In this document: piece after piece, positions 5,933 through 38,044 of the stretch
Numbering within the stretch: position 1 is the stretch's first letter
How the letters are laid out: every line of letters starts with the position of its first letter
The notes under the pieces: model-generated
What the model was told of the DNA's origin: nothing
The model's input: the letters and a program-made list of their open reading frames with translations, nothing else
Databases searched by the model: none
DNA from: Dehalococcoidia bacterium
GTDB taxonomy: Bacteria; Chloroflexota; Dehalococcoidia; GIF9; UBA5629
DNA length: 64,000 bases
Direction: 5' to 3'
NCBI GenBank assembly: GCA_050011565.1
Contig: JBEKIW010000002.1
Location: 384,001-448,000 of the forward strand
Program-made: the position numbers and the translations under genes

Positions 5933-7750
5933 TTAGCTAACTATTTCCTTTCGGTAGGACTGAATTATATCTCCAATTTGGAAATCTGAAAAGCCTTCTA
6001 GTCTGAGCCCACACTCAAAACCGGTAGCTACTTCCTTAACATCTTCCTTGAAACGCCTCAAGCTATTTATACGGGATTCGTGTATTGGTTCGCCCCGACG
6101 TATTAACCGGGCTGGAGCATCCCGTCTCATCTTCCCTTCTTTAACTGAAACCCCGGCTATTCTGGCTTTTTTACCTGTTTCAAATATGGCTATCACTTCG
6201 GCCTGACCTTCAATGACCTCGGTGTAGGTGGGCTCCAGCATGCCTTTCAGTGCTTTTTCAACATCCTTCACCAGTTCATAAATCACGTTGTAATACCGAA
6301 TGCTTATTCCCTCTGTTTCGGCCAGTCGTTGTGCCCCTGGTTCAGGTCGGCTGTTAAAGCCGATGATTATACCTTTAGAAGCTAAGGCTAGTAGCACATC
6401 GCCTTCTGTAATACCGCCGCTGCCCGAGTGGATAATTCTGACCTTAATCCTCTCGTCCCCGAGATGCTCCAGAGAATCCTTGATGGGCTCTATGCTGCCC
6501 TGAACATCTGTCTTAAGAATTATATTGAGCTCCTTTATCTGTCCGGTGCTGATTTGAGTTGAAAGGTCGCTAAGTCCCAGGGGCCTGGCACGAGTTGAGA
6601 CCTTTTGTTGCGAGTCTTTCTGCTTTTCTAATAGCGTTCTGGCTTCACGCTCGGTGCTAAGAACCTTGAACGATTCTCCCGCTTGAGGGACAGCATTTAA
6701 TCCGAGAACTTCCACCGGGGCAGCAGGCTCAGCTTTCTTAAGATGCTTACCCAACTCATTGAACATTGCCTTGACCCTGCCCCAGGTATTACTAACTATG
6801 ATGTTATCGCCGAGCTTGAGTATACCTTTTTGGACCAGAAGGGTAGCTAACGGCCCCCTGGTTTTATCCAGTCGAGCTTCAATTACTACTCCTTCCGCCG
6901 CGCAATCGTGTTCAGCTTTTAGTTCCAGTATATCAGCGACAAGGAGAAGGTTTTCCAGAAGCACATCTATTCCCTGTTTCTTCTTGGCTGATATAGGCAC
7001 GCATACCGTATCTCCTCCCCATTCCTCAATAACCAAGCCTAAATCCGATAGTTGTTTTTTCACTTTCTCCGGATTGGCGTCAGACTTGTCAATTTTGTTT
7101 AGGGCGACCACTATAGGTACATTAGCCGCACGCGCGTGGTCTATAGCTTCTACAGTCTGGGGCATAACTCCGTCATCAGCAGCTACCACCAGGACAGCTA
7201 TATCGGTAACTTGAGTTCCTCTAGCTCTCATGGCGGTGAAAGCCTCGTGCCCCGGCGTATCCAGGAAAGTAATCTTTCTTGAGTCCACCTCGACCTGGTA
7301 AGCTCCTATATGCTGAGTAATAGCGCCAGCTTCGGTGGCGATCACATTGCTTTGGCGAATGGCATCCAGGAGGCTTGTCTTGCCGTGGTCGACATGCCCC
7401 ATAATAGTAATCACCGGCGGCCGCGGGTAAAGTTTACCGCCAGCTGTTGTCACAGGACGTTTTATTTGGGAGAGCACCGGCTGCCTTTTAGCCTCGTAGC
7501 CGAAATGAGCAACTACCACCGCCGCGGTATCATAATCTACAGCCTGATTGATATTAGCCATGATACCGTTTCTCATCAGCTGCTTGATGACCTCGACGGC
7601 ACTAACCTTCAAGAGGTCAGCCAACTGTTTGACGGTTAGAGTTTGTGGAAGGCTAATATGACGCAGCACCTTTAAGGAACTGCTAGCTTCTGGGTTGGTC
7701 ACCTCTTCGTCAGCAATTGATTCTTGTTTCTTATTACTCAACCCTGGCAC
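5933..7750 (-). CDS. infB: translation initiation factor IF-2
   Basis: MGHVDHGKTSLLD, DTPGHEAFTAMRARG, NKID. Confidence 0.98.
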   Translation of the reverse strand: MPGLSNKKQESIADEEVTNPEASSSLKVLRHISLPQTLTVKQLADLLKVSAVEVIKQLMRNGIMANINQAVDYDTAAVVVAHFGYEAKRQPVLSQIKRPVTTAGGKLYPRPPVITIMGHVDHGKTSLLDAIRQSNVIATEAGAITQHIGAYQVEVDSRKITFLDTPGHEAFTAMRARGTQVTDIAVLVVAADDGVMPQTVEAIDHARAANVPIVVALNKIDKSDANPEKVKKQLSDLGLVIEEWGGDTVCVPISAKKKQGIDVLLENLLLVADILELKAEHDCAAEGVVIEARLDKTRGPLATLLVQKGILKLGDNIIVSNTWGRVKAMFNELGKHLKKAEPAAPVEVLGLNAVPQAGESFKVLSTEREARTLLEKQKDSQQKVSTRARPLGLSDLSTQISTGQIKELNIILKTDVQGSIEPIKDSLEHLGDERIKVRIIHSGSGGITEGDVLLALASKGIIIGFNSRPEPGAQRLAETEGISIRYYNVIYELVKDVEKALKGMLEPTYTEVIEGQAEVIAIFETGKKARIAGVSVKEGKMRRDAPARLIRRGEPIHESRINSLRRFKEDVKEVATGFECGLRLEGFSDFQIGDIIQSYRKEIVS

Positions 7751-8049
7751 TCTCTTTCCGGTAGGCTCTTGCCATATTCTACCAGCACCTGCCGATTTTC
7801 CAAAGTGAGCTTAACCCGCAGGGCATGCTCGAGGCGGTTGCCTTTAAGTCCTGTCTCCCAGCATTCACGCATCGGGCATAAATAAGCCCCTCGACCTGCT
7901 TCTTTACCCTTAGGGTCTATTTGTACTGCGTCGGCGTTACCAACGAGTCGTATTAGCTCCCTTTTAGCCATTTTCCCCCGGCAAGCAACGCAACTGCGCT
8001 CAGGTACGTGCCTTTGGCGATGGCTTTGTTTCTTAGGACTATTCTTCAA
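7738..8049 (-). CDS. ylxR: YlxR (RnpM) family RNA-binding protein
   Basis: PERSCVACR...KRELIRLV...GRGAYLC; between nusA and infB. Confidence 0.92.
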   Translation of the reverse strand: MKNSPKKQSHRQRHVPERSCVACRGKMAKRELIRLVGNADAVQIDPKGKEAGRGAYLCPMRECWETGLKGNRLEHALRVKLTLENRQVLVEYGKSLPERECQG

Positions 8050-9484
8050 GTTCTTCTTCGTAGGCTAACCGTTTTTGACGAGCCTTCTTAGGCCTGCTTT
8101 TACTTGCCGGCACATCGGGCTCTTTCTTGCTGGCTTTTTTCTTCTTGGCCTTACTGGCTCTTCCCGGCAGTATGTCCTCGGCGAACCTGATTTTTCGGCC
8201 CTCCGCAGATTTTGCTGTTGAGGGTACACCGCCAGCCAAAACAAGGTCAAAATCACTTACAGCAGCGACTACCTCTTCGGTTTTCTCCTCAGTCACTGGC
8301 TCCGGTTCACCCAGTATTTCCTCTTCACCCTCTGTGGCTGGACCGGGAACTTCTTCTGAAGCAGCAAATTCGGGAATAAGCTCTTCAGCTTCGGTGACTG
8401 CCCCTCTGCCTGCCGCCGCAGCTTCTCTGTCCATACTCGCCCTTTCCGCTTCAACCGCTGAGTTGCTCTTGATATCGATTCGCCAACCGGTTAGTTTTGC
8501 CGCTAATCTGGCGTTCTGTCCTTCTTTGCCGATGGCCAGGGATAGCTGCTTATCGGGAACAGTTACTACACCAGTATTTTCTGCCTGATTGAGTTCCACA
8601 CTTGATACCTGAGCCGGGCTGAGGGCATTGGCAATGAAGGTCGCCGGGTCATCCGACCACTCAACCACGTCTATCTTTTCGCCACGTAGTTCATTTACTA
8701 TGTTTTGTATCCTGATTCCACGCAGTCCGACACAACAGCCGACGGGGTCCACACCCTCCTGGCGGGCTGCCACAGCTACCTTGCTCCGATAACCTGCCTC
8801 GCGTGCTATTGATTTTATATCTATAGTGCCGCCATATATTTCCGGGATTTCCAATTCGAAGAGCCTGCGCAGCAAGTTGCGATGCGAGCGCGATACCAAT
8901 ATCTGAGGCCCCCGGCTACTCTTGGTTACTTCTAAGACGTATAATTTGAGCCTTTGTCCGACTCGGTAGCGCTCGTTATGTACCTGTTCGATGCTAGGTA
9001 ATATTGCTTCGGCTTTGCCCAAATCAATATGAATTTGTTCCGGAGTAATGCGTTGCACTATTCCGGTAACGATGTCACCCTCTTTGCCGGTAAATTCCTC
9101 GAAAATTGCATGATGCTCTGCCTCATGCAACCGCTGCAATATGACCTGTCTTGCCGTCTGAGCAGCTATACGTCCGGCATTCGGCGGTGTGGATTCTATG
9201 CTTACAATGTCTCCGAGCTGGACATTTTTATCTTTCTTTTGAGCGTCGCCAAGGGATACCTCACGAAGCAAGTCGGTTGCTTTTTCAACTACTGTCTTCC
9301 TGACATAGACCTTGACCTCGCCGGTGTTAGGGTTGATTTTAGCCGAGATATCCTGGCCGGCGACAAAAGCGTCTTTTCTGTACGCGGAGACGAGTGCCGT
9401 CTCTATGGCAGACAGCACTACTTCCTTCGGCAGATGTTTCTCAGCCGATAGCTGGGTAAGGGCCACCATGAACTCTGTCTTCAT
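8039..9484 (-). CDS. nusA: transcription termination/antitermination factor NusA, with acidic/basic C-terminal tail
   Basis: [48 protein letters not shown]. Confidence 0.98.
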
Positions 9485-9516
9485 CGCATACCACTCCCCG
9501 ATTCTACTACATCAAC

Positions 9517-14524: not shown

Positions 14525-15505
14525 CTATTTTTTCGATGTGGCTAAGACCGAGCCCAGAAAACGGGTTATTTCCCGTGCGATGACGGGATACCACAGCCAG
14601 AAGGTGACGTGTGTGCCCGGCAGCCACCTGATGGCAGGTTTATGACAGGCTTCCCAGAAGTCGAGCGTAGCCTCTTTGGGGATGGTCTTGTCCCACTTTG
14701 CATTTAACATTAATACCGGGCGCTCTCGGAGATAGGAGGCGAATGTCAGGGCATCGGTTAAGAAGCAATGGTTAAAGGGGACAACATTGTCCAAACCCTT
14801 CTCGGCTACTTCAGCCAGATACTGGGGATAGCGACTGCGAATCTCGCGGCATTCGGCTTCGGTGCAACCGTGACCCTTTACTATAGCTTCGTTCTGGGTG
14901 TTCCAGGTTATTTTCTCCGAGTTGCCGCCGGACACCATGAATACCCCGGCCTTGATGCGTTTGTCCACTCCCATCGCTATCTCGGAGACGAATCCGCCCA
15001 GGCTTATCCCGAGAACGGCTATTTGCTCTTTGTCCAGCTCCGGCCGACTGCTTGCCCAGTCTATTATCTGACGAACTTCAATTATCGATGCCCGATAGCC
15101 TTCAAACCAGTCTTCAGTGGTAAGATATGGCATATGGCTTTTCATGGTTTCCGACATGCGGCTGGTATGGAATACCAGGTATAAGATAAAGGCAGCAATG
15201 CCCTTTTTCACCAGAGTTCGCGCCAGCAATCTGCATGGTATTGTGCTACGGTCGCCCCATCCGTGAATTACTATAGCCAACGGAGCGTGGCTGACATTCC
15301 GCGGCTGAAAATATTCACCCAGGACACTGTTGTTTTCGTTATAGAGGGCGTAGGCGGTAGGGAAATCGACCGCATAACGCAACCAGCGAGATGTCGTTTC
15401 TTTCAGCTTCAGGTTAGCCTTAATATCCTGCCTTTGATAATTGTACGGATTCATGTATTTATCCGGCGGATCCTTTAAATATCTGTTGGACCAGAATGAG
15501 TGCAT
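14525..15505 (-). CDS. alpha/beta-fold hydrolase
   Basis: IHGWG, nucleophile GISLGG, WDKTIP, GTH; start could be 15454. Confidence 0.8.
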   Translation of the reverse strand: MHSFWSNRYLKDPPDKYMNPYNYQRQDIKANLKLKETTSRWLRYAVDFPTAYALYNENNSVLGEYFQPRNVSHAPLAIVIHGWGDRSTIPCRLLARTLVKKGIAAFILYLVFHTSRMSETMKSHMPYLTTEDWFEGYRASIIEVRQIIDWASSRPELDKEQIAVLGISLGGFVSEIAMGVDKRIKAGVFMVSGGNSEKITWNTQNEAIVKGHGCTEAECREIRSRYPQYLAEVAEKGLDNVVPFNHCFLTDALTFASYLRERPVLMLNAKWDKTIPKEATLDFWEACHKPAIRWLPGTHVTFWLWYPVIAREITRFLGSVLATSKK

Positions 15506-15585
15506 CTTTACATATTAACTTCGGAGGAAATTTTTGGCAAACTCAGGGATTTTCGGTGGGGCGAACTGCCTCAGTGGGAGATACC

Positions 15586-15765
15586 TCAGCCAGGGCTGCT
15601 AATGCAGGATTTGCCAGAGGAAGCGGTGCCGAAGGTGGAGAAAATCCTTCGCGGCTGTTTCTTGCCGCATTTGGGACATTTTAATTCGCTGTCGCTGTCC
15701 GTTATTTTGCGATGCGCTTCAAACTTTTCGCCGCAGGATGGGCACTTATATTCATAGATTGGCAT
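15586..15765 (-). CDS. FmdB-family zinc-ribbon protein (59 aa to first TGA); not in ORF track
   Basis: MPIYEYKCPSCGEKFE...LKCPKCG...RRIFSTFG...SCISSPG. Confidence 0.9.
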   Translation of the reverse strand: MPIYEYKCPSCGEKFEAHRKITDSDSELKCPKCGKKQPRRIFSTFGTASSGKSCISSPG

Positions 15766-15780
15766 AATTCCATTCTCCCA

Positions 15781-17055
15781 TTAAGCTAAAGCTTTTACTG
15801 CCAGCTCTGAGACGCTACTGGCTTCGACATTCAAGCCGTAATGCTCGCTTAGATCTCCGATTTGCTGACGGCAGTTATCGCAGGAAGTGATAACGAGGCT
15901 GGCACCGGTGCGTTTAACCTGCTCAGCCTTAAGCTTCCCCGCCTGCATGCGGATATCTAACCATTCCGGCTCGGCCACCAGTCCGCTGCCGGCGCCACAA
16001 CAATAGCTCTCCAGCCGGTTTGGCGTCATCTCTCGAAAATCCTTAACCGCGGCTCGGATTACACGTCGGGGTTCGTCGAAAATACCGCCTTTACGGCCCA
16101 AATTACAGGAGTCGTGATATGTGGTCGGCTGTCCATTCTTGGAGGAATCCAAGTGTAGACGCCCTTCTCTAACGTATTCATCGAGTACTTCTAGGATGCT
16201 GCGGACCCGAAACGGAAGCTGTCCAAACCATTTGGGAGCCTCCCAGCGCATAGTGGTGTAACCATGGCCGCACTCGGTGACGATGATCTCCTCAGCTTTA
16301 AGTTTTTTGGCCTCATTGATAACACGCCCGGTGATGCGCTTGGACTTGATGCCATCGGCCAGAAAAACGGCGTAGTTGGATGACTCGAACATGCCCAGGG
16401 TCCATGATTCCTTAGCTGCATTGAACAGTATAGCCTGAGGGACAATGGTATGAGCCCCGGCCAGGGGTACGTAAAGCATGCGAGCGCCCTTCTCTTCCAC
16501 CGGTATCCGGGCTTTGGAGCTGCCCAGGCGGTCCTGGACTTCCTTTTCCAGTTCTTTAACCTGCTCCCGATATATATCGCGGAATAGTTCAGCGTTCTCT
16601 TCTTTGGCAATGGCAGCGTTAGCCAGCTCCACCAGCATTTCCGGGGCATTGCCGGTGGCGGTGGCTATCGCCCTCATTATGCGCATGATTTCGGCTGTCT
16701 CCACGCCAAAGGGGCAGGCGAAAGTGCAACGGTGGCACAGCGTACAACTGGCAAAAGCAATCTCCGCCAGCTTGGACAACATCTCGTCGGTCGTCTCTTT
16801 GACGCCCACCCACCGCGGGAATGCGCGTCCCATGGGGTCGAAAAAGCGACGGTACAATCGCCGCACCATTTCGGCACGGTAATAGGGAGTGTGCTCCGTC
16901 CGGGGATTGGACTGGTAATAGTGACAGCTTTCGGTGCATATGCCGCAGCGGACACATACCTCTAGCGCCGTCAGCACCCTGCGGTCAACCAGATTGCCCA
17001 GCATTTCCCGGGCTATGGTTAGCTTATCTTTTTTTGTTTCTACTGCGCTACTCAT
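15781..17055 (-). CDS. DsrK/HdrD-like Fe-S oxidoreductase (two [4Fe-4S] motifs plus CCG domain)
   Basis: CVRCGICTESC, CTLCHRCTFACP, TECGHG, YHDSC, YCCGAG, TSCDNC; start at MSSAVETK overlaps the upstream stop. Confidence 0.88.
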   Translation of the reverse strand: MSSAVETKKDKLTIAREMLGNLVDRRVLTALEVCVRCGICTESCHYYQSNPRTEHTPYYRAEMVRRLYRRFFDPMGRAFPRWVGVKETTDEMLSKLAEIAFASCTLCHRCTFACPFGVETAEIMRIMRAIATATGNAPEMLVELANAAIAKEENAELFRDIYREQVKELEKEVQDRLGSSKARIPVEEKGARMLYVPLAGAHTIVPQAILFNAAKESWTLGMFESSNYAVFLADGIKSKRITGRVINEAKKLKAEEIIVTECGHGYTTMRWEAPKWFGQLPFRVRSILEVLDEYVREGRLHLDSSKNGQPTTYHDSCNLGRKGGIFDEPRRVIRAAVKDFREMTPNRLESYCCGAGSGLVAEPEWLDIRMQAGKLKAEQVKRTGASLVITSCDNCRQQIGDLSEHYGLNVEASSVSELAVKALA

Positions 17056-17680
17056 GTGTCCACTCCAGTACGCCGCGGCGCCCGAAGAACAAACCGACAA
17101 AGACGCGTTCGTAAAAGAAATAAATAAAGTGTTTAATCTTGCCGAATGGCGCGTAAGCCAGCGTTATGCCGGAGATAGCCCAGAATAGGGGTAAAAAGTC
17201 CGGTTTGATAGCGGATGCGGCGCCTGCTGCCAGGAATAGTGTCACCAGCGCCAGAGAGAAATAATCATCCGGGGTGCTTAGCAGCCGCATGGTTGGGTCG
17301 CCCAATCTTATGCCGAAACCTGCCACACCCAATACAGCGCCGACGCCGAAAAGAGCCGCTAAAGAGATGCGTAGCGGCAATATCATCTGCGTCAGCCATG
17401 GGCTGGCAATAAGAAACGCTGCGGCCACGAATATGCCAACATGAATGATTATGCCGCGTATATAAGCTACCCAATGCCGTCGAGCGCTCTCCTTGGCCCA
17501 CGGAGCCATGCCCAGAGTGAAAGCATAAAGGACGCCTTGTGCTGGAGAACGTTTGACTGGCGCTTGTTCAGACTGGTAGGGCCGGCGCTGAGCAGCGACA
17601 AGAACGTATAATACGCCAATAATAAAGATGACGGCACCAACCAGTGCTATTCCGGCGGTCACCATCTGCAACATACTCAT
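17048..17680 (-). CDS. NarI/DsrM-like membrane subunit (putative cytochrome b)
   Basis: About five TM segments, H in IIHVGI, RLLSTPDDY, PFGKIKH. Confidence 0.7.
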   Translation of the reverse strand: MSMLQMVTAGIALVGAVIFIIGVLYVLVAAQRRPYQSEQAPVKRSPAQGVLYAFTLGMAPWAKESARRHWVAYIRGIIIHVGIFVAAAFLIASPWLTQMILPLRISLAALFGVGAVLGVAGFGIRLGDPTMRLLSTPDDYFSLALVTLFLAAGAASAIKPDFLPLFWAISGITLAYAPFGKIKHFIYFFYERVFVGLFFGRRGVLEWTHE

Positions 17681-17919
17681 TTCACTTTCTTGATATGGAA
17701 CCTGATTAGCTTGCCATCTCTTTCGATGGAGATAAGCTCGTTGCCGGTGCTCTTGGTCCAGGCAGGTATATCTGCCAGTACACCAGGGTCGGTGGCCGTG
17801 GCTTCTAGTACTTTGCCCACCTCCATGGTTTTAATTGCCTGGCTCACCTTAACTATCGGGATAGGGCAAAGTAGACCCTCAAGATTTAGTTTAACATCTG
17901 CATTTGTTTGTCCTGGCAT
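17677..17919 (-). CDS. TusA-family sulfur carrier
   Basis: GLLCPIPI (CPxP), ATDPG..ADIPAW; start at MPGQT after GAGGAG. Confidence 0.92.
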   Translation of the reverse strand: MPGQTNADVKLNLEGLLCPIPIVKVSQAIKTMEVGKVLEATATDPGVLADIPAWTKSTGNELISIERDGKLIRFHIKKVK

Positions 17920-17935
17920 TATTTTCTCCTCATGC

Positions 17936-18412
17936 CTATACAAATAATGTCATCTTGGAGTGGAAAGCTTTCTCCAGCATGGTAGCCACTCCGCAAGACT
18001 CTTCGGCCTCGTCAATCAGGTGTTCCGCCTTTATCTCCATGACCTGCATGCTCATCTCGCAGGGCAGGAGCTTAACTCCCAGGTCGATGGCGGTCTGCCG
18101 GAGTTCCTCCAGCGGTGTTATTTTATGTGACTTCATCATTTGTTTGAACATCCACCGGCCGATGCCCCAGAAATTGAAACGCGACGGGCCGATAGTATTG
18201 ATACCGCCCCGGTTGAGGAGGCCCATCATGCGGCCGAAGAAGCCCTGACCTGTTAGATTTCCTTTCTGTATGGCTTTTATACCCCAGAAGGTGAAAAACA
18301 TATTGGTTTCTTTGCCGGCTGCGGCAGCTCCGATGGCGATATTGAAGGCTGCCATGACCTTGTCCATGTCACCGCTAAATACGATTATGGTTACACCATC
18401 TTCTTTTGCCAT
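17936..18412 (-). CDS. DsrE/DsrF/DrsH-like (DsrE2-type) sulfurtransferase
   Basis: IIVFSGDMDK, MFFTFWG, PCEMSM; start at MAKED after AAGGAG. Confidence 0.9.
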   Translation of the reverse strand: MAKEDGVTIIVFSGDMDKVMAAFNIAIGAAAAGKETNMFFTFWGIKAIQKGNLTGQGFFGRMMGLLNRGGINTIGPSRFNFWGIGRWMFKQMMKSHKITPLEELRQTAIDLGVKLLPCEMSMQVMEIKAEHLIDEAEESCGVATMLEKAFHSKMTLFV

Positions 18413-18627
18413 TTCTGTCTCCTTCACAATTATTAATACACGTTAGATGCGGCACCCTGTACCATGGGGTGGGTGCCGTGCGCCCCCTTAACCAAACTGA
18501 CATGAATTTACCCTGCTTACACCTCCTTCATAGCGTAAACGCGCTGACCTGATATTTATCAAGGTAATTGATGACCTTTTGTTATTTCCAACTTGCGTGC
18601 GAGGCTTCCAGCCTCATCTGTCTAGCT

Positions 18628-18810
18628 TCAGCCGCCGCCGAAGGCGAACTGAGTAAAGAACCTTAACTTATCGGTAGGGCTGTCTAATTTTTCAACTTTG
18701 CCGCCACCGCAGCGGGGGCACTTCACGTTCTTATCGTCTTTCACATTATCCAGATTGGGTTTCTTAAATGTGACGCGACATTCATTACATCCGTATTCCT
18801 GGACTTGCAT
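18628..18810 (-). CDS. FmdB-like zinc-ribbon protein; possible Sec extension to 18622
   Basis: EYGCNEC...VKCPRCG; SD AAGGAG; ends GGG-TGA-AGC-TAG. Confidence 0.8.
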   Translation of the reverse strand: MQVQEYGCNECRVTFKKPNLDNVKDDKNVKCPRCGGGKVEKLDSPTDKLRFFTQFAFGGG

Positions 18811-18834
18811 TGTATATCTCCTTTAACTCTGAAA

Positions 18835-19167
18835 TTAAGCTACCAGCCTCTCGGCTAGCTGTTTGTTCTTCTCCATCCGGTCGAGCAGTATCTCATGCAC
18901 CATGTCACAGGCATCGCCGATTTTGGGGTCGCTGAGGCTGTAGTAGACACTGGTCCCTTCTCGCCGGAACTGCACCACCCCTTTGTCCCTGAGAATCGCC
19001 AGATTACGGGAGACAACCGCCTGAGGAAACTCGAGCACCCTTGCCAGCTCGCCCACAGTCGTCTCACCCTGTCGCAGCTCATCGATGATGATAAGCCGCT
19101 TGGCGTCAGCGAAGGTCTTGCATAGTTCCGCCTTTAGTGCGTAAAGTTCAAGATTGTGTCTGGCCAA
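18835..19167 (-). CDS. ArsR/SmtB-family transcriptional regulator
   Basis: AELCKTFAD.KRL.I..., VS.NLA.LR..G.V..RREG..VYY.L. Confidence 0.92.
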   Translation of the reverse strand: MARHNLELYALKAELCKTFADAKRLIIIDELRQGETTVGELARVLEFPQAVVSRNLAILRDKGVVQFRREGTSVYYSLSDPKIGDACDMVHEILLDRMEKNKQLAERLVA

Positions 19168-19194
19168 TGGGCACCTTCCTCATGGTTAATACAA

Positions 19195-19239
19195 ATATAT
19201 ATATAGACGTATATTATCATATTGTGTGGGCATTGTCAA
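19195..19239 (-). promoter_or_regulatory. ArsR operon promoter with overlapping AT-rich palindromic putative operator
   Basis: TTGACA-17-TAATAT followed by ATATA-cgtc-TATAT. Confidence 0.5.
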
Positions 19240-19266
19240 ACCACCTATCCCCGGTGGGGAAATCCC

Positions 19267-19398
19267 AAATCCTAAGCACCAAATCCTAAATAATATCAAA
19301 ATACTAATTCTCCAAATTCAGGATAGTTTATCTTTGTGCCGTTCGAATTTTGAGATTTGGATTTGTTTGATGCTTGGAATTTATTATTTATAATTTGG
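19267..19398. repeat. heptamer-based inverted repeat element, family D copy 1
   Basis: AAATCCTAAGCACCAAATCCTAAATAATATCAAAAT arm; near-identical reverse-complement arm at about 61226-61270. Confidence 0.8.
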
Positions 19399-19460
19399 GC
19401 TGCCGGGGGGATATGGTGGGCACACGAATGGTGGTATAATAGGCATCTTGGGGGAAATAG

Positions 19461-21005
19461 ATGGCCAGGTACATAATCGCCCATGATGTAGGCACCAGCG
19501 GCAATAAAGCGGTTCTGGTGGATACTAAGGGGCGCGTCCACGGTAAATGTATTGAGCCTTACAAAACGTATTTTCCGAAGCCAGGATGGGCGGAGCAGGA
19601 ACCGTCAGACTGGTGGAAGGCGGTAACGCGGACGACCAGGCTTCTCCTCGACCGGACAAATATATCTCCTAAAGACATTCTGTGCGTTACTTTCGGTACG
19701 CAGATGCTCGGCGTCATCCCCATTGACTCCAAAGGTGTGCCGCTGAGGCGTGCCATTATCTGGCTTGACAACCGCGCCGGTGAACAGGCGGAGCGGCTGA
19801 TGAGAAAATTCCTCGGACCTCGTGTCTTCGCCTTAATTGCCGGCACTGCCTTATGCGGCAAAGACGGCATGCCCAAGCTACTCTGGCTGAAAGGGGAAGA
19901 GCCTGATATTTACCACAAGATGTGTTGTTTTCTGGATACCTCGGGTTATCTTTTCTATCGCAGCACCGGCAACATGGCCATGGAGTGGACCGGCGCTTCA
20001 GTCTTCGGGCTCGACCTGAAAAAGAAAACATGGATGACCAGTATTTTCAGCTATGTCGGACTTGATACCGAGAAGCTGCCCCCGTTAGTACGATCGATCG
20101 ATAAGGTCGGTGAACTTACCAGAGAAGCTGCCAGGGAATACGGACTTTTGCCCGGCACACCGGTTATGGCTGGCGCCGGCGATGCTCCCTGCGCCGTAGT
20201 TGGCTCCGGCGCCGTCGGCGAAGGCGAAGGTCATGTTTATCTGGGAACCTCCGGCTGGGTGGGCGTGGTCACCAGGCGAATACTGCAGGGTAAATGCGGC
20301 GCCGCCACCATTCATTCGGCAGACCCCGACAAGACGTTTCTATTTGCCGAGACTGAAGCAGCCGGCGGCTGCATCCAGTGGATCGCCGACCAGTTTTACA
20401 AAGCGGAAAAAAAGGACCCGAATATACCCAATGTTTATGCTCTGATGGACGATGAGGTGGCTAAAATTCCACCGGGCTCCAATTATCTTCTTTTCACCCC
20501 CTGGATTTATGGAGAAAGAGCTCCCATTAACGATTGTTATGTCCGTGCCTCATTTCTCAACTTGAGCGCCGAGCATACCCGCGAGGATATGCTGCGTGCC
20601 GTATATGAAGGTGTGGCTTATAACATCAGGTGGATTGTGGAAATCGTAGAGAAAGAGTTCAAGTTGCCACTGCCGCAACTCAGGGTTATAGGTGGAGGCG
20701 CCAAGGGCAAACCCTGGATGCAGATAATGGCTGATGTTACCGGCAGAAAAATTGAGACCGTCTGCGACCCTCAGGAAGCTGGCGCCGTAGGTGCCGCACT
20801 GATAGCGGCGGTTGGCCTGGGAATATACCCGGACTTCGAGTCGCTGAAAAAGGTAATCAAAGTGGACAGGGTATTTGAGCCACAGCCCCGGAATTCGGAT
20901 ATTTATAATACGCTGTATGGTTCGTATCATGAAGTCTACAGTAGCTTACGTAATTTCTATAGAAGGCTGAATAAGGAGCGATTCGACAAGGCGGTGTGTG
21001 AGTAG
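19461..21005 (+). CDS. FGGY-family carbohydrate kinase (xylulokinase-like)
   Basis: AHDVGTSGNK, PGWAEQ.P.DWW, IIWLDNRA, GAGDA, YLGTSGW, GERAP, GGGAK; TG-N-TATAAT at 19432-19440. Confidence 0.93.
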   Translation: MARYIIAHDVGTSGNKAVLVDTKGRVHGKCIEPYKTYFPKPGWAEQEPSDWWKAVTRTTRLLLDRTNISPKDILCVTFGTQMLGVIPIDSKGVPLRRAIIWLDNRAGEQAERLMRKFLGPRVFALIAGTALCGKDGMPKLLWLKGEEPDIYHKMCCFLDTSGYLFYRSTGNMAMEWTGASVFGLDLKKKTWMTSIFSYVGLDTEKLPPLVRSIDKVGELTREAAREYGLLPGTPVMAGAGDAPCAVVGSGAVGEGEGHVYLGTSGWVGVVTRRILQGKCGAATIHSADPDKTFLFAETEAAGGCIQWIADQFYKAEKKDPNIPNVYALMDDEVAKIPPGSNYLLFTPWIYGERAPINDCYVRASFLNLSAEHTREDMLRAVYEGVAYNIRWIVEIVEKEFKLPLPQLRVIGGGAKGKPWMQIMADVTGRKIETVCDPQEAGAVGAALIAAVGLGIYPDFESLKKVIKVDRVFEPQPRNSDIYNTLYGSYHEVYSSLRNFYRRLNKERFDKAVCE

Positions 21006-21022
21006 ATATCCACTAATTCTTA

Positions 21023-21074
21023 TAGGGGCGAGGCTTTAGCCTCGCCCAGTGCGACCTTAAAAGGTCGCACCTAC
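21023..21074. repeat. REP-like double palindrome, family G
   Basis: GGGCGAGGCT-TT-AGCCTCGCCC and GTGCGACCTT-A-AAAGGTCGCAC; degenerate copy at about 30269-30308. Confidence 0.75.
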
Positions 21075-21144
21075 ATGAGACGATGATGAGTGATGCTAAA
21101 CAAGGGAAAGATTCGATAAGACAGTGTGTGAAGGAGGTGTTTAA

Positions 21145-22455
21145 ATGAATGGCGATGATATTTTGAGCCTGCCCATTGCCCTGCCCGACGGCGTGGATTA
21201 TGACGACTACGTTATCGGCACCTATCTGGTCTCTTATCCAGCCTCGCTGCCTCTCCCTATAATTGCGCCTTTCCTGGCTATCGAGCAGAGCACGGGGACG
21301 TGGGTGGCTGTGCCCGGCGAGACCGAGGAAGTCCGACGTCAGCATATCGCCAAGGTGGTGGGTGTTTATGAAATGCCCGACTACGAGTCCACCGTGCCGG
21401 CGAATCTACAGACCAGGCAGTGGTTCGTCCAGGTGGCTTATCCCGAGGTAAACATCGGTGAGCAGATACCCATGCTGCTGACCACAGTGGTGGGCAACAT
21501 CTCCATGGGCGGCGAAATAAAGCTGGTGGACATGCGTTTTCCGAAGAAATTCGCTGCCGGTTTCAAGGGCCCCAAATTCGGCGTCGACGGCATACGTAAG
21601 CTTCTGGGAATTCCGAAGCGACCACTGCTAAATAACATGATAAAGCCCTGCACCGGCTATACCTGCGAAGTCGGGGCTGAACTGTTTCGCAAAGCGGCCG
21701 CCGGCGGCTGCGACATCGTTAAGGACGACGAGCTTATTGCCGACGCCTCGTTCAACTCGGCGCTGGAGCGCGTCAAGCTTTATATGCAGGTTGAGAAGCA
21801 GGTCTTCGAGGAAACCGGTGAACATACGCTGTACACAGTGAATGTAACGGATAAAATACCAAAGGTCTTCGAGACTGCCAAACGCGCCGTGGAATTGGGC
21901 TGCAACGCGCTGATGATAAACTACCTGGCTGTCGGCTTTCCGGTGTTGCAGGCGCTGGCTGAAGACACCAGCCTGAATGTGCCCATACTGGCACATATGG
22001 ACGTGGCCGGCGCTCTGTACATGTCGCCTTATCACGGCATGAGCTCTCATCTGGTGCTGGGCAAATTGCCGCGGCTAGCAGGCGCCGACGTAGTTGTTAT
22101 CCCCGCCCCCTACGGCAAGGCGCCGGTAATTGACTATAAGTTCAAAAATGTTGCCCGAAACCTGTTATTCCCGCTATATAACCTGAAGCCCACGTTCCCC
22201 ATGGCATCGGGCGGCATCACCCCGTCCATGGTGCCGCAGGTGATGATGGCGCTGGGCAATGACATAGTCATAGGTTCCGGAGGCGGCATTCATGCGCATC
22301 CCCAGGGTGCCATCGCCGGAGGCAAAGCCTTCCGGCAGGCGATAGATGCTACCATGCAGGGCATTCCGCTGGCCGACTATGCCAAGGAGCATGAGGAGCT
22401 GGCGATTTCACTAAAGGAGTGGGTCGACCCGTTCAGCAGAGGAATCAGAATTTGA
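21145..22455 (+). CDS. RuBisCO-like protein (form IV)
   Basis: EQSTGTW, GPKFG, IKPCTG (K177 replaced by C), VKDDE, AHM (R295 replaced), YGK, ASGG, GGGIHAHP.G. Confidence 0.92.
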   Translation: MNGDDILSLPIALPDGVDYDDYVIGTYLVSYPASLPLPIIAPFLAIEQSTGTWVAVPGETEEVRRQHIAKVVGVYEMPDYESTVPANLQTRQWFVQVAYPEVNIGEQIPMLLTTVVGNISMGGEIKLVDMRFPKKFAAGFKGPKFGVDGIRKLLGIPKRPLLNNMIKPCTGYTCEVGAELFRKAAAGGCDIVKDDELIADASFNSALERVKLYMQVEKQVFEETGEHTLYTVNVTDKIPKVFETAKRAVELGCNALMINYLAVGFPVLQALAEDTSLNVPILAHMDVAGALYMSPYHGMSSHLVLGKLPRLAGADVVVIPAPYGKAPVIDYKFKNVARNLLFPLYNLKPTFPMASGGITPSMVPQVMMALGNDIVIGSGGGIHAHPQGAIAGGKAFRQAIDATMQGIPLADYAKEHEELAISLKEWVDPFSRGIRI

Positions 22456-30576: not shown

Positions 30577-32484
30577 CTAAAGCGTGATAACGAAATTGGT
30601 GATGCCGTGTTCGGTCTTTTCCCAGTAAGAAGGCTTGACTATCAGTTGCCATAGTGCCTTATATGCCCCCACGGATTGCAGCAGCCAGTAAACCGGGCTG
30701 AGCAGCGCGTAGGGAATGAGATGATAATATTTTCTGGGCACCACCGCGAACAAGTTCAGGCAAATAACTACCGCGTTGCCCACAAACAGGTTTATTGCCG
30801 ATACATAAAACAACACTATAGGCGTCGAATGTGGAGACAGTATAGGTGCTCCGATAGTGAGAAAATATATAAACAGGCACCACATGATCGGATTCAATAA
30901 AAATAGTGCCGGCGTTCCACCTATGAGAAGATTATACCCAAGCCACTTTTTTAATCCCATCACCTTCATTCCCTGCAATGGGTGTCTATTGTGTATCAAA
31001 AACGTTTGCATATATCCCTTAACCCAGCGGGAGCGCTGCCTCAGCCAATTCCCCAACTTGGAGTTTGCTTCCTCGTAAGTTGTCGATTTAATGATACCAA
31101 CTTTGTAGCCTTTCGCGGCGGCTCGTATGCCTAGATCGGCGTCCTCGGTCACATTGAACGGGTCCCAGGCTCCTATTTTCTTCAACTTCTGCACATGGAA
31201 ATGATTACTGGTGCCACCGAGAGGTATAGGTAGACCCATAGCATCGAGTCCGGGCAGCAGGCAATCGAACCAGTAAGTATATTCCAGGGTGAACATCTTA
31301 GTCAGAAAATTCTCATTGCGATTGAAATAATTAAGCGAGGCTTGAAAGCAAATATAGTCATCCGGATGTGTTCGAAAGGCAACGACCGCTTTTTTCAACT
31401 GGTCAGGTTCGGGAATATCTTCGGCATCATAAATAGTCAGGTACTCGCCTCTGGCGAACTGAATTCCGTAGTTTAAAGCTTTAGGTTTTGTTTTTGGCTC
31501 GCTGTTCGGCAAAGTTAGAATCCTCCAGCTTACCGGAGGGTGCGCTTTTTTAGTAGCCTCCAATGTCTCCTTGTCGTTTTCTTCCAGCAGCAGGATTATA
31601 TCCAGCTTATCGGCGGGGTAATCTAACCTTTGAACAGCTTTTATCAGGGTAGGAATGACCTTCATTTCCTTGTAAGCCGCAATGAGAACCGTATAAACAG
31701 GCAATCTCTTCGGGTCCAGATAAAGATAATTATCCTCAGTGTATTGCCTATGCTGGGTACGCTTCAGCCCCCAGGCTGTAACAATGAACTTATATAGGAA
31801 TGAAATCAGGTAAAAAAACTGAACAGCGAATAAAAAGATGATAAAAACAACTTGCGCATTGACAGCAATGGCAATAAATGTCGTGAGGAGAAGCAGACAT
31901 AAAATGCTGATCTGCGATTTATTAAAGACCTTTTGGGCGGACTCATCAGGATTCCGGTAGAAAAGCCCGTGAACAGACTTATCAAGCATCGTGTCCCGGT
32001 AGACGGCGTCAGTTAATTTCATAATGTCCAGGTCGCTGACCACGATCTGACTGATAATCTCATGTCCGAAACGTCTTTGTAAGAAGGCAAGCGTTTCTGG
32101 ATTTTCAGGTTCGGAAGTAAGCACATCGAGCGTTCCATTCGGCTTTCGAAACGGGATTGCCTGGTAGCGTGCTACCTCTTCAGGAGTAACCAGCGCCGCT
32201 AGGTCCTTATTTATATTGTTAACCATATAAGATACATCGGTGGCACAAGGAAGATGGAAATGAGAAGCCAGAGCTCGGCTCAGGTCCAGGCGATTAATAT
32301 ATCCCAGTGTCGCTAGAATCCAACCCAGCCTGCCGCCGAACTGCTGTTGATACTGCAGGGCACGGTTGAGCTGAATGGGTGAAATGTAGCCGGCATCGAG
32401 CAGGATATCTCCGATTCTTCTGGAGTTTCCGTCACTCCGTTCCGGCGGTTCAATTGACAGTCTATCTTTTTCAAGAATTACCAT
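30577..32484 (-). CDS. membrane GT2 glycosyltransferase with N-terminal MshEN (c-di-GMP-binding) domain
   Basis: RIGDILLDAGYI...QL..AL..Q and RLGWIL...G..; KTKPKALN, YDAED, TEDADLG, RQRSRW, WEKTEHG. Confidence 0.9.
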   Translation of the reverse strand: MVILEKDRLSIEPPERSDGNSRRIGDILLDAGYISPIQLNRALQYQQQFGGRLGWILATLGYINRLDLSRALASHFHLPCATDVSYMVNNINKDLAALVTPEEVARYQAIPFRKPNGTLDVLTSEPENPETLAFLQRRFGHEIISQIVVSDLDIMKLTDAVYRDTMLDKSVHGLFYRNPDESAQKVFNKSQISILCLLLLTTFIAIAVNAQVVFIIFLFAVQFFYLISFLYKFIVTAWGLKRTQHRQYTEDNYLYLDPKRLPVYTVLIAAYKEMKVIPTLIKAVQRLDYPADKLDIILLLEENDKETLEATKKAHPPVSWRILTLPNSEPKTKPKALNYGIQFARGEYLTIYDAEDIPEPDQLKKAVVAFRTHPDDYICFQASLNYFNRNENFLTKMFTLEYTYWFDCLLPGLDAMGLPIPLGGTSNHFHVQKLKKIGAWDPFNVTEDADLGIRAAAKGYKVGIIKSTTYEEANSKLGNWLRQRSRWVKGYMQTFLIHNRHPLQGMKVMGLKKWLGYNLLIGGTPALFLLNPIMWCLFIYFLTIGAPILSPHSTPIVLFYVSAINLFVGNAVVICLNLFAVVPRKYYHLIPYALLSPVYWLLQSVGAYKALWQLIVKPSYWEKTEHGITNFVITL

Positions 32485-32861: not shown

Positions 32862-34619
32862 TTGTTACTCGAAATAAGAGTCAGGAACCTGGGAATCATC
32901 GAAAGCATAGACTGGAACCTGGGCCGCGGGCTGAACGTCATCACCGGCGAGACAGGTGCCGGCAAATCACTGCTCATCGACGCTGTGGAGGCGCTGCTGG
33001 AAGGGAAAGTAGGCGAGGAGGTTATCCGCCATGGCAGCGACGAAGCCCAAATCGAAGGTATTTTCGCCTTGCCCGATAATGAACACCTGGCGCAGCTCAG
33101 GGAACTCCTGGACGAAAATGGCTTGAAATCAGATGAGGATAATCTGGTTATCAGTTGCGAATCCAAAAGGCATGGGCGCGGCATTGTCAGGGTCAACGGA
33201 CGTGCGACCACCAGAGGCATTCTGCGCCAGATCGGACGCTTGCTAATCGATATTCACGGCCAGAGCGAGCACCTGTCTCTACTCGATACGAAGTATCACC
33301 TGGATTTCCTCGATGCCTATGGCCATACCATGGAGCTGCGGCACAGCTTCACCGCTAAAGTGGCAGAGCTTCATAAACTGGAGCAGGAGCTCAAGGCGCT
33401 GGTTGAAGCCGAGAAAGATGCCGCTCGCCGCCAGGAATTCCTGCGCTTCCAGCTCGATGAGATAAGAAAAGCTGAGTTGCGTCCCGGGGAGGAGGAAGAG
33501 CTGGAAAAAGAACGAACTCTCCTGTCTTCGGCTGAGCAGCTGAAGGCAATGTCTTATGAAGCCTACCAGGCTCTAGGCAAGGAAGATGCCTCACGTGGTT
33601 CAGCACCGGCTCTGGACAAATTGAATGAAGCACTGGCAGTTATGAAGAAGCTCGTCGAGCTGGACCCCACGCTTAGCCAGCAATTGAGTTCTCTCGAAGA
33701 TGCCGTGTACCGGGTCGAGGAGGCAGCGCGGGAAATTAGCGCTTACAGCGGAAGGTTGGAGCAGAATCCGGAGCGGCTGGAAGAGGTGGAGTCGCGTTTT
33801 GAGGTCATAAAAGGTCTAAAACGGAAATACGGACAGACCATCGCTGACATACTGCTCTATTTGGAGAAGACTGAAAAAGAGCTGGAGTCAATCTCGCGTT
33901 CTTCAGAGAGGCAGGCTGAGCTGGAGAAGATGCGCTCTGAGCTCAAGGTGGAGATGGGCAGGATAGCCTCCGAGCTCTCCACAGCGCGCTCAGCGACGGC
34001 GGAGAAGTTAGTCGCCGAGGTGAAGAAGGAACTCCATGATTTGAGCATGTCGCAGGTTGAATTCGAGGTGTCCCTAACCCGGGAGGAAGCTGAAGACGGT
34101 ATTCCTCTACCTGACGGCAAAACTTACGCCTTTAACAGCGAGGGAGTTGATGTGGTTGAGTTCATGGCTTCGACCAATCCCGGAGAGCCTGTAAAGCCCA
34201 TAACCAGGATTGCTTCTACAGGTGAAATCTCCCGTTTTACGCTGGCGCTGAAATGCGCTCTGTCGGAGGTTGATAGTATCCCCATTCTCATTTTCGACGA
34301 GATAGACATCGGTGTGGGGGGACGGAGCGGCGAAATAATAGGCAAGAAGCTCTGGACACTAGCTCAGAATCGCCAGGTGATTTGCGTAACTCATCTTCCC
34401 CAGATCGCTGCCTATGCCGATGCCCATTACCAAGTTCACAAAGAAGAGTCAGGCGCTCGGACTGTCAGCCTGCTTCAGCCGCTTGAAGGCGAGGAACGTA
34501 CCAGGGAGATTGCCGTCATGCTCGCCGGCCCGCAGTACACTGAAGTTTCCCTGACCGACGCCCGCGGCGTGATGCACAGGGCACAGTCCTGGAAACAAGA
34601 CCACGGCAAGATATCCTAA
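32862..34619 (+). CDS. recN: DNA repair protein RecN
   Basis: TGETGAGKSLL, IDIHGQ.EH, NPGEP...ASTGE.SR..LA, FDEID.GVGG, VTHLPQIA; TTG start after GGGAG. Confidence 0.97.
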   Translation: MLLEIRVRNLGIIESIDWNLGRGLNVITGETGAGKSLLIDAVEALLEGKVGEEVIRHGSDEAQIEGIFALPDNEHLAQLRELLDENGLKSDEDNLVISCESKRHGRGIVRVNGRATTRGILRQIGRLLIDIHGQSEHLSLLDTKYHLDFLDAYGHTMELRHSFTAKVAELHKLEQELKALVEAEKDAARRQEFLRFQLDEIRKAELRPGEEEELEKERTLLSSAEQLKAMSYEAYQALGKEDASRGSAPALDKLNEALAVMKKLVELDPTLSQQLSSLEDAVYRVEEAAREISAYSGRLEQNPERLEEVESRFEVIKGLKRKYGQTIADILLYLEKTEKELESISRSSERQAELEKMRSELKVEMGRIASELSTARSATAEKLVAEVKKELHDLSMSQVEFEVSLTREEAEDGIPLPDGKTYAFNSEGVDVVEFMASTNPGEPVKPITRIASTGEISRFTLALKCALSEVDSIPILIFDEIDIGVGGRSGEIIGKKLWTLAQNRQVICVTHLPQIAAYADAHYQVHKEESGARTVSLLQPLEGEERTREIAVMLAGPQYTEVSLTDARGVMHRAQSWKQDHGKIS

Positions 34620-34743
34620 TATAAGAATATATTATTAATAGTTTAGGGATACACAAAATATATCTAAATAATACTGGATATATAGCTATATATATCGTAT
34701 AAGATAGACAGCAACTATATTCTGGCTATCTCGAGTATTTATT

Positions 34744-37872: not shown

Positions 37873-38044
37873 GTTTTGCCCCCGATCTTATTCTATTGCG
37901 ATGTGTGAGGGCTGTCAATCCATATAATTACATTAATGATTATGAGGTATGTGTCGGATAATGGTTTGGGGTTTTGAAGAACTCGTACTTGAGATTTTCG
38001 GATTTGTAGGTTTTTTGATGACTGTATTTACTTTTTCCGGAACA

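Follow-up and report, generated by a model that had tools for sequence, protein, structure and literature searches.

What is a membrane-bound redox module resembling DsrMK doing behind two small sulfur carriers when neither dsrAB nor dsrC is found beside it: which protein would bring the sulfur, in which direction would the electrons flow, and how would the whole be switched on? These questions are raised by a seven-gene cluster on the minus strand (15586-19239) of a 64-kb stretch of DNA from a Dehalococcoidia bacterium (contig JBEKIW010000002.1; "the window" hereafter means this whole stretch), which encodes, in order of transcription, an ArsR-family repressor, a small zinc ribbon, a DsrE2-type protein, TusA, a small NarI-like membrane subunit, a DsrK-like iron-sulfur (Fe-S) subunit and an FmdB-family zinc ribbon. 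The answer favoured here, to which a probability of roughly one half is assigned, is that these genes specify a membrane-bound reductase, inducible and self-contained, which would draw on quinol to reduce sulfane sulfur carried by TusA or DsrE2. The part families are known and the system is of the DsrMK/HdrDE/TmcBC kind; what makes it a novel form is how the parts are combined, that the catalytic subunit has a clade of its own and that the membrane subunit is reduced. No description of a DsrE2-TusA-cytochrome b-DsrK-like cluster was found in open-access papers and bioRxiv, nor was any paper found there for the NCBIfam name TsoR.

The seven co-oriented genes proposed by the sequence-only reading, which had been made from the letters of the stretch without database searches, are real: Pfam and NCBIfam scans of the window proteins, from which the identities of the open reading frames (ORFs) derive, place all seven on the minus strand where they had been expected. 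The same reading had spoken of several overlapping stop and start codons, and such overlaps do exist, but at two junctions only, those between TusA and the membrane subunit (ATGA) and between the membrane and Fe-S subunits (ATGAGTAG), the remaining intergenic gaps being 15, 16, 24 and 215 nucleotides (nt) long. The cysteines described as intact were all found (TusA C18, C118 within LLPCEMS of the DsrE2-type protein and the 14 of the Fe-S protein), as was the one near each end of ArsR (C16 and C87). The absence of dsrAB and dsrC likewise holds within the 64-kb window, where neither these genes nor dsrJOP were found among 41 ORFs plus 15 more, small ones included, and in the 70 loci described below none of them is a recurrent neighbour, out to about 4 kb from the cluster. 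The rest of the window is occupied by housekeeping genes (IF-2, NusA, TruB, RecN, PEP synthase and others).

The loci come from a single scan of species-representative genomes, in which a 21-sequence alignment used as the query returned 74 loci; removal of four with partial or very weak matches left 70 with a near-full Fe-S relative of at least 35% identity, and the presence counts given here refer only to loci with sufficient upstream DNA to judge. The TusA gene lies directly upstream in 61 of 63 (it is absent in L006 and L069), a membrane subunit was recognised in 63 of 64 (tblastn found 60, and Pfam PF02665, at 3e-20 to 7e-18, three more at the corresponding position), and the DsrE2-type gene in 54 of 60 (upstream in 52, directly downstream of the Fe-S gene in two), whereas an ArsR gene adjoins the cluster in 37 of 57, and the zinc ribbons were seen in close relatives only (8/64 for the downstream FmdB, 6/57 for the upstream one). 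As the core genes are near-constant while the regulator varies and the zinc ribbons are restricted in this way, the conserved unit is DsrE2-TusA-membrane-Fe-S behind a changeable regulator, and, since its order recurs in 70 loci of other species, the arrangement is not due to chance and the module is as self-contained as had been supposed. Which of the two proteins suggested to stand in for DsrC is the better candidate also becomes clearer: TusA, whose gene overlaps that of the membrane subunit, is, the latter apart, the most constant neighbour of the Fe-S subunit, whereas the FmdB zinc ribbons, being restricted to close relatives, are no general DsrC substitute. When the other ORFs within about 4 kb were clustered, no family occurred in more than nine of the 70 loci, the recurrent flanking ones being universal stress proteins, two-component regulators and lineage synteny; none of DsrAB, sHdr, persulfide dioxygenase or Soe recurs beside the cluster in these loci.

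Chloroflexota is the label of 59 of the 70 loci (18 Dehalococcoidia, 10 Thermoflexia, 8 Anaerolineae, 6 "Chloroflexia", 2 Caldilineae and 15 unclassified), and the others are labelled Acidobacteriota, Aminicenantes, Gamma- or Deltaproteobacteria, among others. Close homologues of the Fe-S protein show 55-97% identity among the 120 matches listed, all of which are metagenome-derived, the named sources listed being Chloroflexi, Dehalococcoidia, Anaerolineae and Thermoflexus metagenome-assembled genomes. In L006, a complete 1.76-Mb chromosome, the set (6032-9502) is a reduced one and is preceded by an HTH_3 regulator. Single-gene tblastn matches are split into two to four pieces in different frames in L066 (whose Fe-S gene is 97% identical), L023, L024, L040 and L057; these may be indel errors rather than pseudogenes, as the isolate names suggest long-read assemblies.

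The Fe-S subunit (15781-17055, minus strand, 424 amino acids (aa)) matches the NCBIfam models of DsrK (NF045796, 245.6 bits against a cut-off of 400), TmcB (NF045724, 230.5 against 735) and HmcF (NF045711, 209.6 against 750). Its 14 Cys and His264 are retained in 69/69 relatives, and they make up two CxxCxxCxxxC ferredoxin motifs (C34, C37, C40, C44 and C104, C107, C110, C114, each in 69/69; Pfam Fer4_8 is matched at 3.6e-11), one complete CCG motif (C317, C352-C353-G354, C392-x-x-C395) and a C262 standing alone in T260-E-C262-G-H264, which is the full catalytic-type signature of DsrK, TmcB and HmcF. According to a passage of PMC10861901, the latter three share one CCG motif and the non-ligating Cys in T/GECGH. 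In the first CCG half, C262 is the sole Cys left, with GAH and E-x-x-N-Y at the remaining positions, and the protein thus lacks the two CCG motifs of HdrD.

A search for Fe-S relatives in 1.84 billion representatives gave 5265 at E <= 1e-3, 2029 at <= 1e-10 and 157 at <= 1e-30; among 93 matches of at least 380 aa, taken from 150 listed and scanned with NCBIfam, seven pass the DsrK cut-off, one passes that of HmcF and one comes near that of TmcB (723.6 vs 735). In a midpoint-rooted tree, whose 82 rows comprise the window, 17 loci and 64 of the 93 matches (quick search, LG+G4, SH-aLRT), the family of the window forms a 20-row clade (SH-aLRT 99), sister (SH-aLRT 97) to an 11-row clade with HmcF and TmcB, while a separate DsrK clade of 29 rows (SH-aLRT 100) contains six DsrK-passing rows and leaves the window outside. 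The xECGH motif occurs in 18/20, 8/11 and about 18/29 rows of these three clades in the same alignment, and the window's family is set apart by a conserved His202 and a last motif C[DE]NC, which is mostly CHNC in the HmcF/TmcB clade. In L069, the sole locus without a membrane subunit, an MvhD/ferredoxin protein takes its place, and this locus falls with the latter clade. The suspicion that this is no canonical DsrK was thus well placed, and the residues and tree position together indicate that the subunit belongs to the catalytic proteins of the DsrK/TmcB/HmcF type, in a clade of its own, and is not an EtfD. Paralogous matches in L022 and L062, proteins of roughly 1000 aa, were tried as DsrK references and dropped. 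Two of the relatives, P0123 (661 aa) and P0127 (670 aa), carry about 250 additional N-terminal residues, which in P0123, placed inside the family clade, align with the membrane subunit at 70% probability; judging by this, both may be natural membrane/Fe-S fusions, as in EtfD.

The membrane subunit (17048-17680, minus strand, 210 aa) matches only TmcC (9e-13) and HmcE (6e-10) among the NCBIfam models. Against the PDB, a single-sequence search returned nothing useful and a 61-sequence profile had zero matches at E up to 10, whereas the same profile aligned by hhalign, at 96% probability, with the PF02665-positive membrane subunit of the L062 type, which belongs to a divergent subclade; Atlas neighbours of the protein are auto-named nitrate reductase gamma subunit. 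Three His are conserved (His69 in 61/62, His80 and His184 each in 62/62). The L062-type homologues have four, spaced 10 and 18 apart, of which hhalign and MAFFT alike equate the first with His80 and the last with His184, the two middle positions being Leu/Ile and Phe in the window's family, beside deletions of 11 and 28 residues. A different assignment, with H184 as the first His of helix 5 and R202 as the second, was rejected, both programs putting H184 at the last His. By NarI numbering, the retained His80/His184 pair is presumably that of the haem nearest the cytoplasmic Fe-S subunit, and these alignments suggest that the subunit probably binds one bis-His haem b, as EtfD does. Of the two His pairs, on helices 2 and 5, by which NarI/DsrM cytochromes hold two haems, the "DsrM-like" subunit thus keeps only one. 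A single haem near the cytoplasm is expected to give little or no charge separation, and, with the distal pair missing, disposal or homeostasis of sulfane sulfur is to be expected rather than a NarI-type redox loop.

As for the carriers, TusA (17677-17919, minus strand, 80 aa, ATG behind GAGGAG) has the PF01206 domain (5.3e-20, 71.5 bits vs 28.6) with the Cys of the CPxP motif, here CPIP, and its C18, P19 and P21 are invariant in 62 sequences; its solved relatives are 1pav, 1dcj and 3lvj, and it stays below the E. coli equivalog cut-offs of both TusA (47.9 vs 78) and YedF (48.9 vs 79). The DsrE2-type carrier (17936-18412, minus strand, 158 aa, ATG behind AAGGAG; PF13686 at 1.9e-40, 138.8 bits vs 25) has C118 in 53/53 relatives, aligned with the Cys of its best solved relatives, 2qs7 (7.5e-18) and 3pnx (3.1e-15), the former of which is named DsrE2B-type in a part of PMC11094781. 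As it misses the cut-off of the NF047629 equivalog (61.6 vs 210), it is to be called DsrE2-type and not an orthologue of the Allochromatium protein.

Co-folding of the Fe-S subunit with TusA, suggested earlier as a check, gave a score of 0.52 (0.36, 0.52 and 0.72 in the individual runs), with 0.01 for the best of three controls, at least 97% of contacts shared by the runs and a partner pLDDT of at least 82. Of the solved complexes, 116 of 157 attain the mark used, against 2 of 215 mismatched pairs, and at 0.60 or below it is attained by only 18 of the 157 and by both passing mismatches, all of these calibration counts being only rough since the partners were entered as alignments of our own. 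The outcome lends the pairing weak support, the prior for which had already been raised by the adjacency of the two genes and by gene overlap.

The repressor gene (18835-19167, minus strand, TTG start) encodes a 110-aa winged-helix protein of the ArsR/SmtB family (PF01022 at 1.4e-10; NF033788 at 78 bits vs a cut-off of 55), whose nearest solved relatives are SqrR (1.5e-13), HlyU, PagR, Rv0081 and BigR, a branch that is thiol-sensing in SqrR, HlyU and BigR and that we take to be without the classical metal sites. C16 is present in 39 of 41 orthologues, C87 in 21 and H91 in 19; the protein has the fold and family of the SqrR/BigR sensors, but not their Cys pair, and BigR itself is matched at 55.1 bits vs 155. 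On the minus strand upstream of it lies a sigma-70-type promoter-like site (TTGACA-17 nt-TAATAT, 19211-19239; 10/12 matches, with a TG before the -10 box), and most Dehalococcoidia loci have TTGACA and a -10 box correspondingly placed ahead of ArsR. An AT-rich imperfect palindrome (19187-19216; 18-nt arms, 78% complementary), which overlaps the -10 box and the start region, is a candidate ArsR operator. Related loci have AT-rich palindromes at the matching place, and their sequence varies by lineage (the Thermoflexus loci carry a different one, CCGGTTATCC..GGATAACCGG); the order in the upstream regions of many loci is a -35 box, a -10 box and then the palindrome. ArsR is taken to be an autoregulated repressor sensing through C16, by which it may still act in the manner of SqrR and BigR, and persulfide would be a plausible signal. 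In seven loci without ArsR (L021, L022, L023, L048, L050, L051 and L071) a co-oriented HTH_17-PocR regulator, so assigned from scans of two representatives, lies 25-128 bp upstream. The operon thus seems to be a regulated one, as had been claimed, with a regulator preceding the genes, though of varying kind.

Some further regulatory signals were seen in the relatives. A LuxR-type response regulator and a HisKA_3 kinase lie nearby in the Thermoflexus and some other loci. Strict CRP/FNR-type sites occur upstream of the clusters in only 2 of 56 loci, L040 and L041, where they stand 95 nt upstream of where ArsR starts, immediately ahead of the -35 box, and are the only exact TGTGA-N6-TCACA sites in 947 kb of loci; near-matches lie upstream in Thermoflexus, L036 and L037. 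Judging by these motifs, a CRP/FNR-type activator may act in L040 and L041.

How would such a system work? Sulfane sulfur (persulfide or polysulfide) would be taken up as a Cys persulfide on Cys118 of the DsrE2-type protein and Cys18 of TusA; TusA would then dock on the cytoplasmic DsrK-like subunit and pass the sulfur to Cys262 of the TECGH motif, while electrons of the quinol pool, the donor that we infer, would reach the two cubane clusters through the small NarI-like cytochrome b, probably by its one haem at the cytoplasmic face. The product would be sulfide, made from carrier-bound sulfane sulfur without a classical sulfite reductase, and the ArsR of the SqrR/BigR/HlyU branch would shut the promoter until a thiol-reactive signal modifies Cys16. 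The reductive direction is preferred because, with two carriers and a DsrK-type enzyme, reduction to sulfide is the simplest chemistry, and because neither DsrAB nor an sHdr/lipoate system adjoins the cluster: a DsrK-type site alone can reduce S-S bonds, whereas we know of no route from it to sulfite without one of these. The chemistry envisaged has a precedent in the cryo-electron microscopy study of DsrMKJOP (bioRxiv 10.64898/2026.08.25.746951), where the equivalent Cys329 is persulfidated and proposed to relay sulfur to the single non-cubane cluster, His331 is the likely proton donor, and the DsrC-trisulfide is said, citing PMC10861901, to be reducible by the mild donor menaquinol.

Several points weigh against this reductase, its components or the sample on which it is based. 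At L006 (75% identity) the genes of the membrane subunit, the Fe-S subunit and FmdB stand with no TusA or DsrE2 beside them, and the loci were picked up with two peptide patterns specific to the family, which biases the sample towards the window's clade. The membrane protein has no Pfam match, its TmcC and HmcE matches lie far below the NCBIfam cut-offs, its best eight Foldseek matches, all of them NarI, have E of only 0.04-0.09 and TM of 0.35-0.50 (from an AlphaFold2 (AF2) model built on the 61-sequence alignment, pLDDT 91.8), and the single haem depends on two sequence alignments. The co-fold support is weak, and no interface came with the score. The closest solved structure to the Fe-S subunit, EtfD, is an electron-transfer protein, not a disulfide reductase. 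As to the signal, C87 is missing in 20 of the 41 ArsR orthologues, and the SqrR Cys in the aligned segment faces Asp29, C16 and C87 facing a Leu and a Val of SqrR; with neither Cys aligned to that of SqrR and ArsR replaced altogether in seven loci, the two-Cys persulfide-sensing ArsR of the sequence-only reading is weakened. Menaquinol is, by standard potentials, a thermodynamically poor donor for S-S reduction. Finally, DsrMK(JOP) is assumed to work oxidatively in sulfur oxidisers, as put in a passage of PMC13293266.

The last two points lead straight to the main rival, unlikely as it seems on balance, namely that the same parts run in reverse: sulfide or carrier thiols would be oxidised to the TusA/DsrE2 persulfide (or a carrier-carrier polysulfide) with the electrons going to quinone, the whole being a protein-linked sulfide:quinone oxidoreductase in the service of energy metabolism or sulfur-dependent biosynthesis. 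Besides the oxidative DsrMK(JOP), it has on its side that menaquinone is a better acceptor than menaquinol is a donor for an S-S/thiol couple, that EtfD, the closest solved fold, reduces menaquinone through one haem b and its His pair is the very one that the membrane subunit keeps, and that TusA feeds biosynthetic sulfur relays. However, a repressor of the persulfide-sensing branch would then induce a system producing more persulfide, none of the downstream oxidising enzymes named above (DsrAB, sHdr, persulfide dioxygenase, Soe) recurs beside the cluster, and the host lineages are mostly anaerobic fermenters.

Much less room is left for a role in the detoxification or trafficking of selenium, tellurium or metalloids, with a metal-sensing ArsR and a YedF-like TusA homologue, which we regard as improbable. 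The best NCBIfam match of the TusA homologue is YedF, marginally above TusA, but its score is far under the cut-off; C16, C87 and H91 of ArsR could form a metal site, and CmtR and other metal sensors are among its weaker matches, but C87 and H91 are lacking in about half of the regulators, some loci use the unrelated PocR-type regulator instead, and the nearest solved regulators are of the non-metal branch. No YedE/YeeE, SelD or metal-efflux gene recurs beside the cluster, and the selenium alternative raised earlier has nothing specific pointing to it.

Could the module, then, be a pure electron-transfer device of the EtfD/EMO or TmcBC type, linking a soluble partner to the quinone pool, with TusA and DsrE2 having a separate role? 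The case for this begins with mycobacterial EtfD (PDB 9ojn), the menaquinone oxidoreductase of electron-transfer flavoprotein (ETF), which is the only strong PDB sequence match of the Fe-S subunit (2.2e-16) and, ahead of LutA and HdrB, also the best Foldseek match of its AF2 model (pLDDT 85.5; E 9.9e-10, TM 0.66). EtfD has one haem b on His78/His241 with the quinone site beside it and a non-cubane cluster with a nearby His; C262 and H264 face its C581 and H583, and that aligned His completes the cluster coordination in a site that is called non-catalytic. L006, with no TusA and DsrE2 adjacent, would also fit. The likeness in fold is genuine, but it does not extend to the details: EtfD consists of one fused chain and has a linear [3Fe-4S] cluster, for which the ligands are absent here, where the genes are separate; its C584 faces a Gly, so that C-P-H-C stands against C-G-H-G, in a motif that is the xECGH of DsrK, TmcB and HmcF, and the first CCG half lacks the cluster Cys. 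No ETF gene, cytochrome c or other donor gene recurs in the flanks, whereas TusA is a near-constant neighbour and is translationally coupled in the window, and for these reasons little credence is given to electron transfer alone.

In layout, the proposed carrier-bound sulfane sulfur reductase resembles DsrMK, the minimal form of DsrMKJOP and the menaquinol:DsrC-trisulfide reductase of sulfate and sulfite reducers: both combine a NarI-type membrane subunit with a cytoplasmic Fe-S subunit bearing two ferredoxin clusters, a single CCG motif and the Cys/His pair of xECGH, and in both the substrate would be sulfur on a small carrier protein. The carriers here are, however, TusA and DsrE2 instead of DsrC, the membrane subunit has one His pair instead of two, and the last CCG Cys is kept, whereas many DsrK have an Asp in its place, as noted in a part of PMC10861901. 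That this is simply the usual DsrMK of an organism reducing sulfite or sulfate, with dsrAB and dsrC encoded at another place in its genome, seems very improbable, for, even with DsrK as the top-scoring model and some Dehalococcoidia known to carry dsrAB, the score is below the cut-off, the clade lies apart from the DsrK-passing proteins and nearer HmcF/TmcB, dsrAB, dsrC and dsrJOP are found neither in the window nor recurring beside the 70 loci, and the carriers of the cluster include Thermoflexia, Anaerolineae and Caldilineae, groups not known for sulfite reduction.

The nearest clade is that of TmcB and HmcF from the Desulfovibrio Tmc and Hmc complexes, which have the same TECGH form of the motif (PMC10861901, in the passage on these proteins), and TmcC and HmcE are the only NCBIfam models matched by the membrane subunit here; the Fe-S scores are, however, about a third of the cut-offs, and the operon is without a periplasmic multihaem cytochrome c, TmcD or HmcB-D. 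HdrDE, the methanophenazine:CoM-S-S-CoB heterodisulfide reductase of Methanosarcina, has the same layout of a membrane cytochrome b and an HdrD-type Fe-S subunit, but its substrate is a small-molecule disulfide, and HdrD has two complete CCG motifs and two non-cubane clusters, as described in parts of PMC10861901 and bioRxiv 10.64898/2026.08.25.746951. The YTD cluster (YeeE/YedE-TusA-DsrE) likewise combines TusA and a DsrE-type carrier with a membrane protein, which is a YeeE transporter there and a redox subunit here. In the sulfane-sulfur operons under SqrR, BigR and CstR, TusA/DsrE-type carriers and a membrane protein are controlled by a persulfide-responsive repressor, the partner being a persulfide dioxygenase, a rhodanese or a CoA-persulfide reductase in place of the DsrK-type Fe-S protein.

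A bolder reading, taken to be somewhat less likely than not, is an undescribed respiratory-type class, a quinol:TusA-persulfide reductase in which DsrE2-loaded TusA would replace DsrC at a DsrK-type non-cubane cluster. If so, Chloroflexota and some Acidobacteriota would reduce intracellular sulfane sulfur to sulfide independently of oxygen and without a sulfite reductase, and in evolution the family would stand for a branch lying between DsrMK and the Tmc/Hmc complexes. At present, DsrC is the only substrate with which DsrK-type enzymes are understood; a version wired to TusA and DsrE2 would extend the chemistry at a single non-cubane cluster to more protein-bound sulfur carriers, assign a function to the poorly understood DsrE2 proteins, and offer a compact set of four proteins for studying DsrK-type catalysis outside the large DsrMKJOP complex. 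It would also point to a hidden source of sulfide, or a defence against sulfane sulfur, in those abundant uncultured Chloroflexota from sediments, groundwater and hot springs in which the usual markers dsrAB are lacking.

The two zinc ribbons are accessory to all this. The downstream FmdB-family one (15586-15765, minus strand, 59 aa; TIGR02605 at 71 bits vs 31.3) has a fifth conserved Cys, C54, in its Ser-rich tail (9/9). The upstream one (18628-18810, minus strand, 60 aa), a small four-Cys protein that scores 31.3 bits with TIGR02605, which is exactly the cut-off, ends in Gly-Gly-Gly; a terminal F-x-[FW]-x-G-G is conserved in the window and six orthologues (L002, L003, L005, L019, L024 and L066), while those of L009 and L073 end in SFG. 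The terminal Gly-Gly recalls thiocarboxylate sulfur carriers, but the fold is that of a zinc ribbon. Just past the stop of this gene, inside the 215-nt gap, lies a stem-loop (18601-18615, minus strand) whose GAGGC..GCCTC is kept in 7/7 aligned intergenic regions and has no T-run behind it; a Rfam scan of 15300-19600 gave no match, and a look for an internal promoter or shared operator in the gap turned up only this hairpin. A 42-aa ORF there (18375-18503) was rejected, its region being missing from three of the seven aligned loci.

Beyond the operon, an FGGY-family sugar kinase and a RuBisCO-like protein are encoded divergently from it (19461-22455, plus strand), the latter scoring 382.5 bits vs the 409 cut-off of 2,3-diketo-5-methylthiopentyl-1-phosphate enolase; the pair also stands beside the cluster in L002, L003, L008 and L019, which may reflect a link to sulfur salvage or mere synteny. 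Farther away, a 1042-aa protein (34744-37872, minus strand) passes the NCBIfam cut-off of the anti-phage protein DS8 (831.6 vs 790 bits), and its stretch, 34001-38000, with a G+C content of 0.38-0.40 vs about 0.50 elsewhere, resembles a defence island that has been acquired. The family-2 glycosyltransferase encoded at 30577-32484 (minus strand) is of the cellulose/PNAG synthase type and has an N-terminal MshE-type cyclic-di-GMP-binding domain (58.5 bits vs 38).

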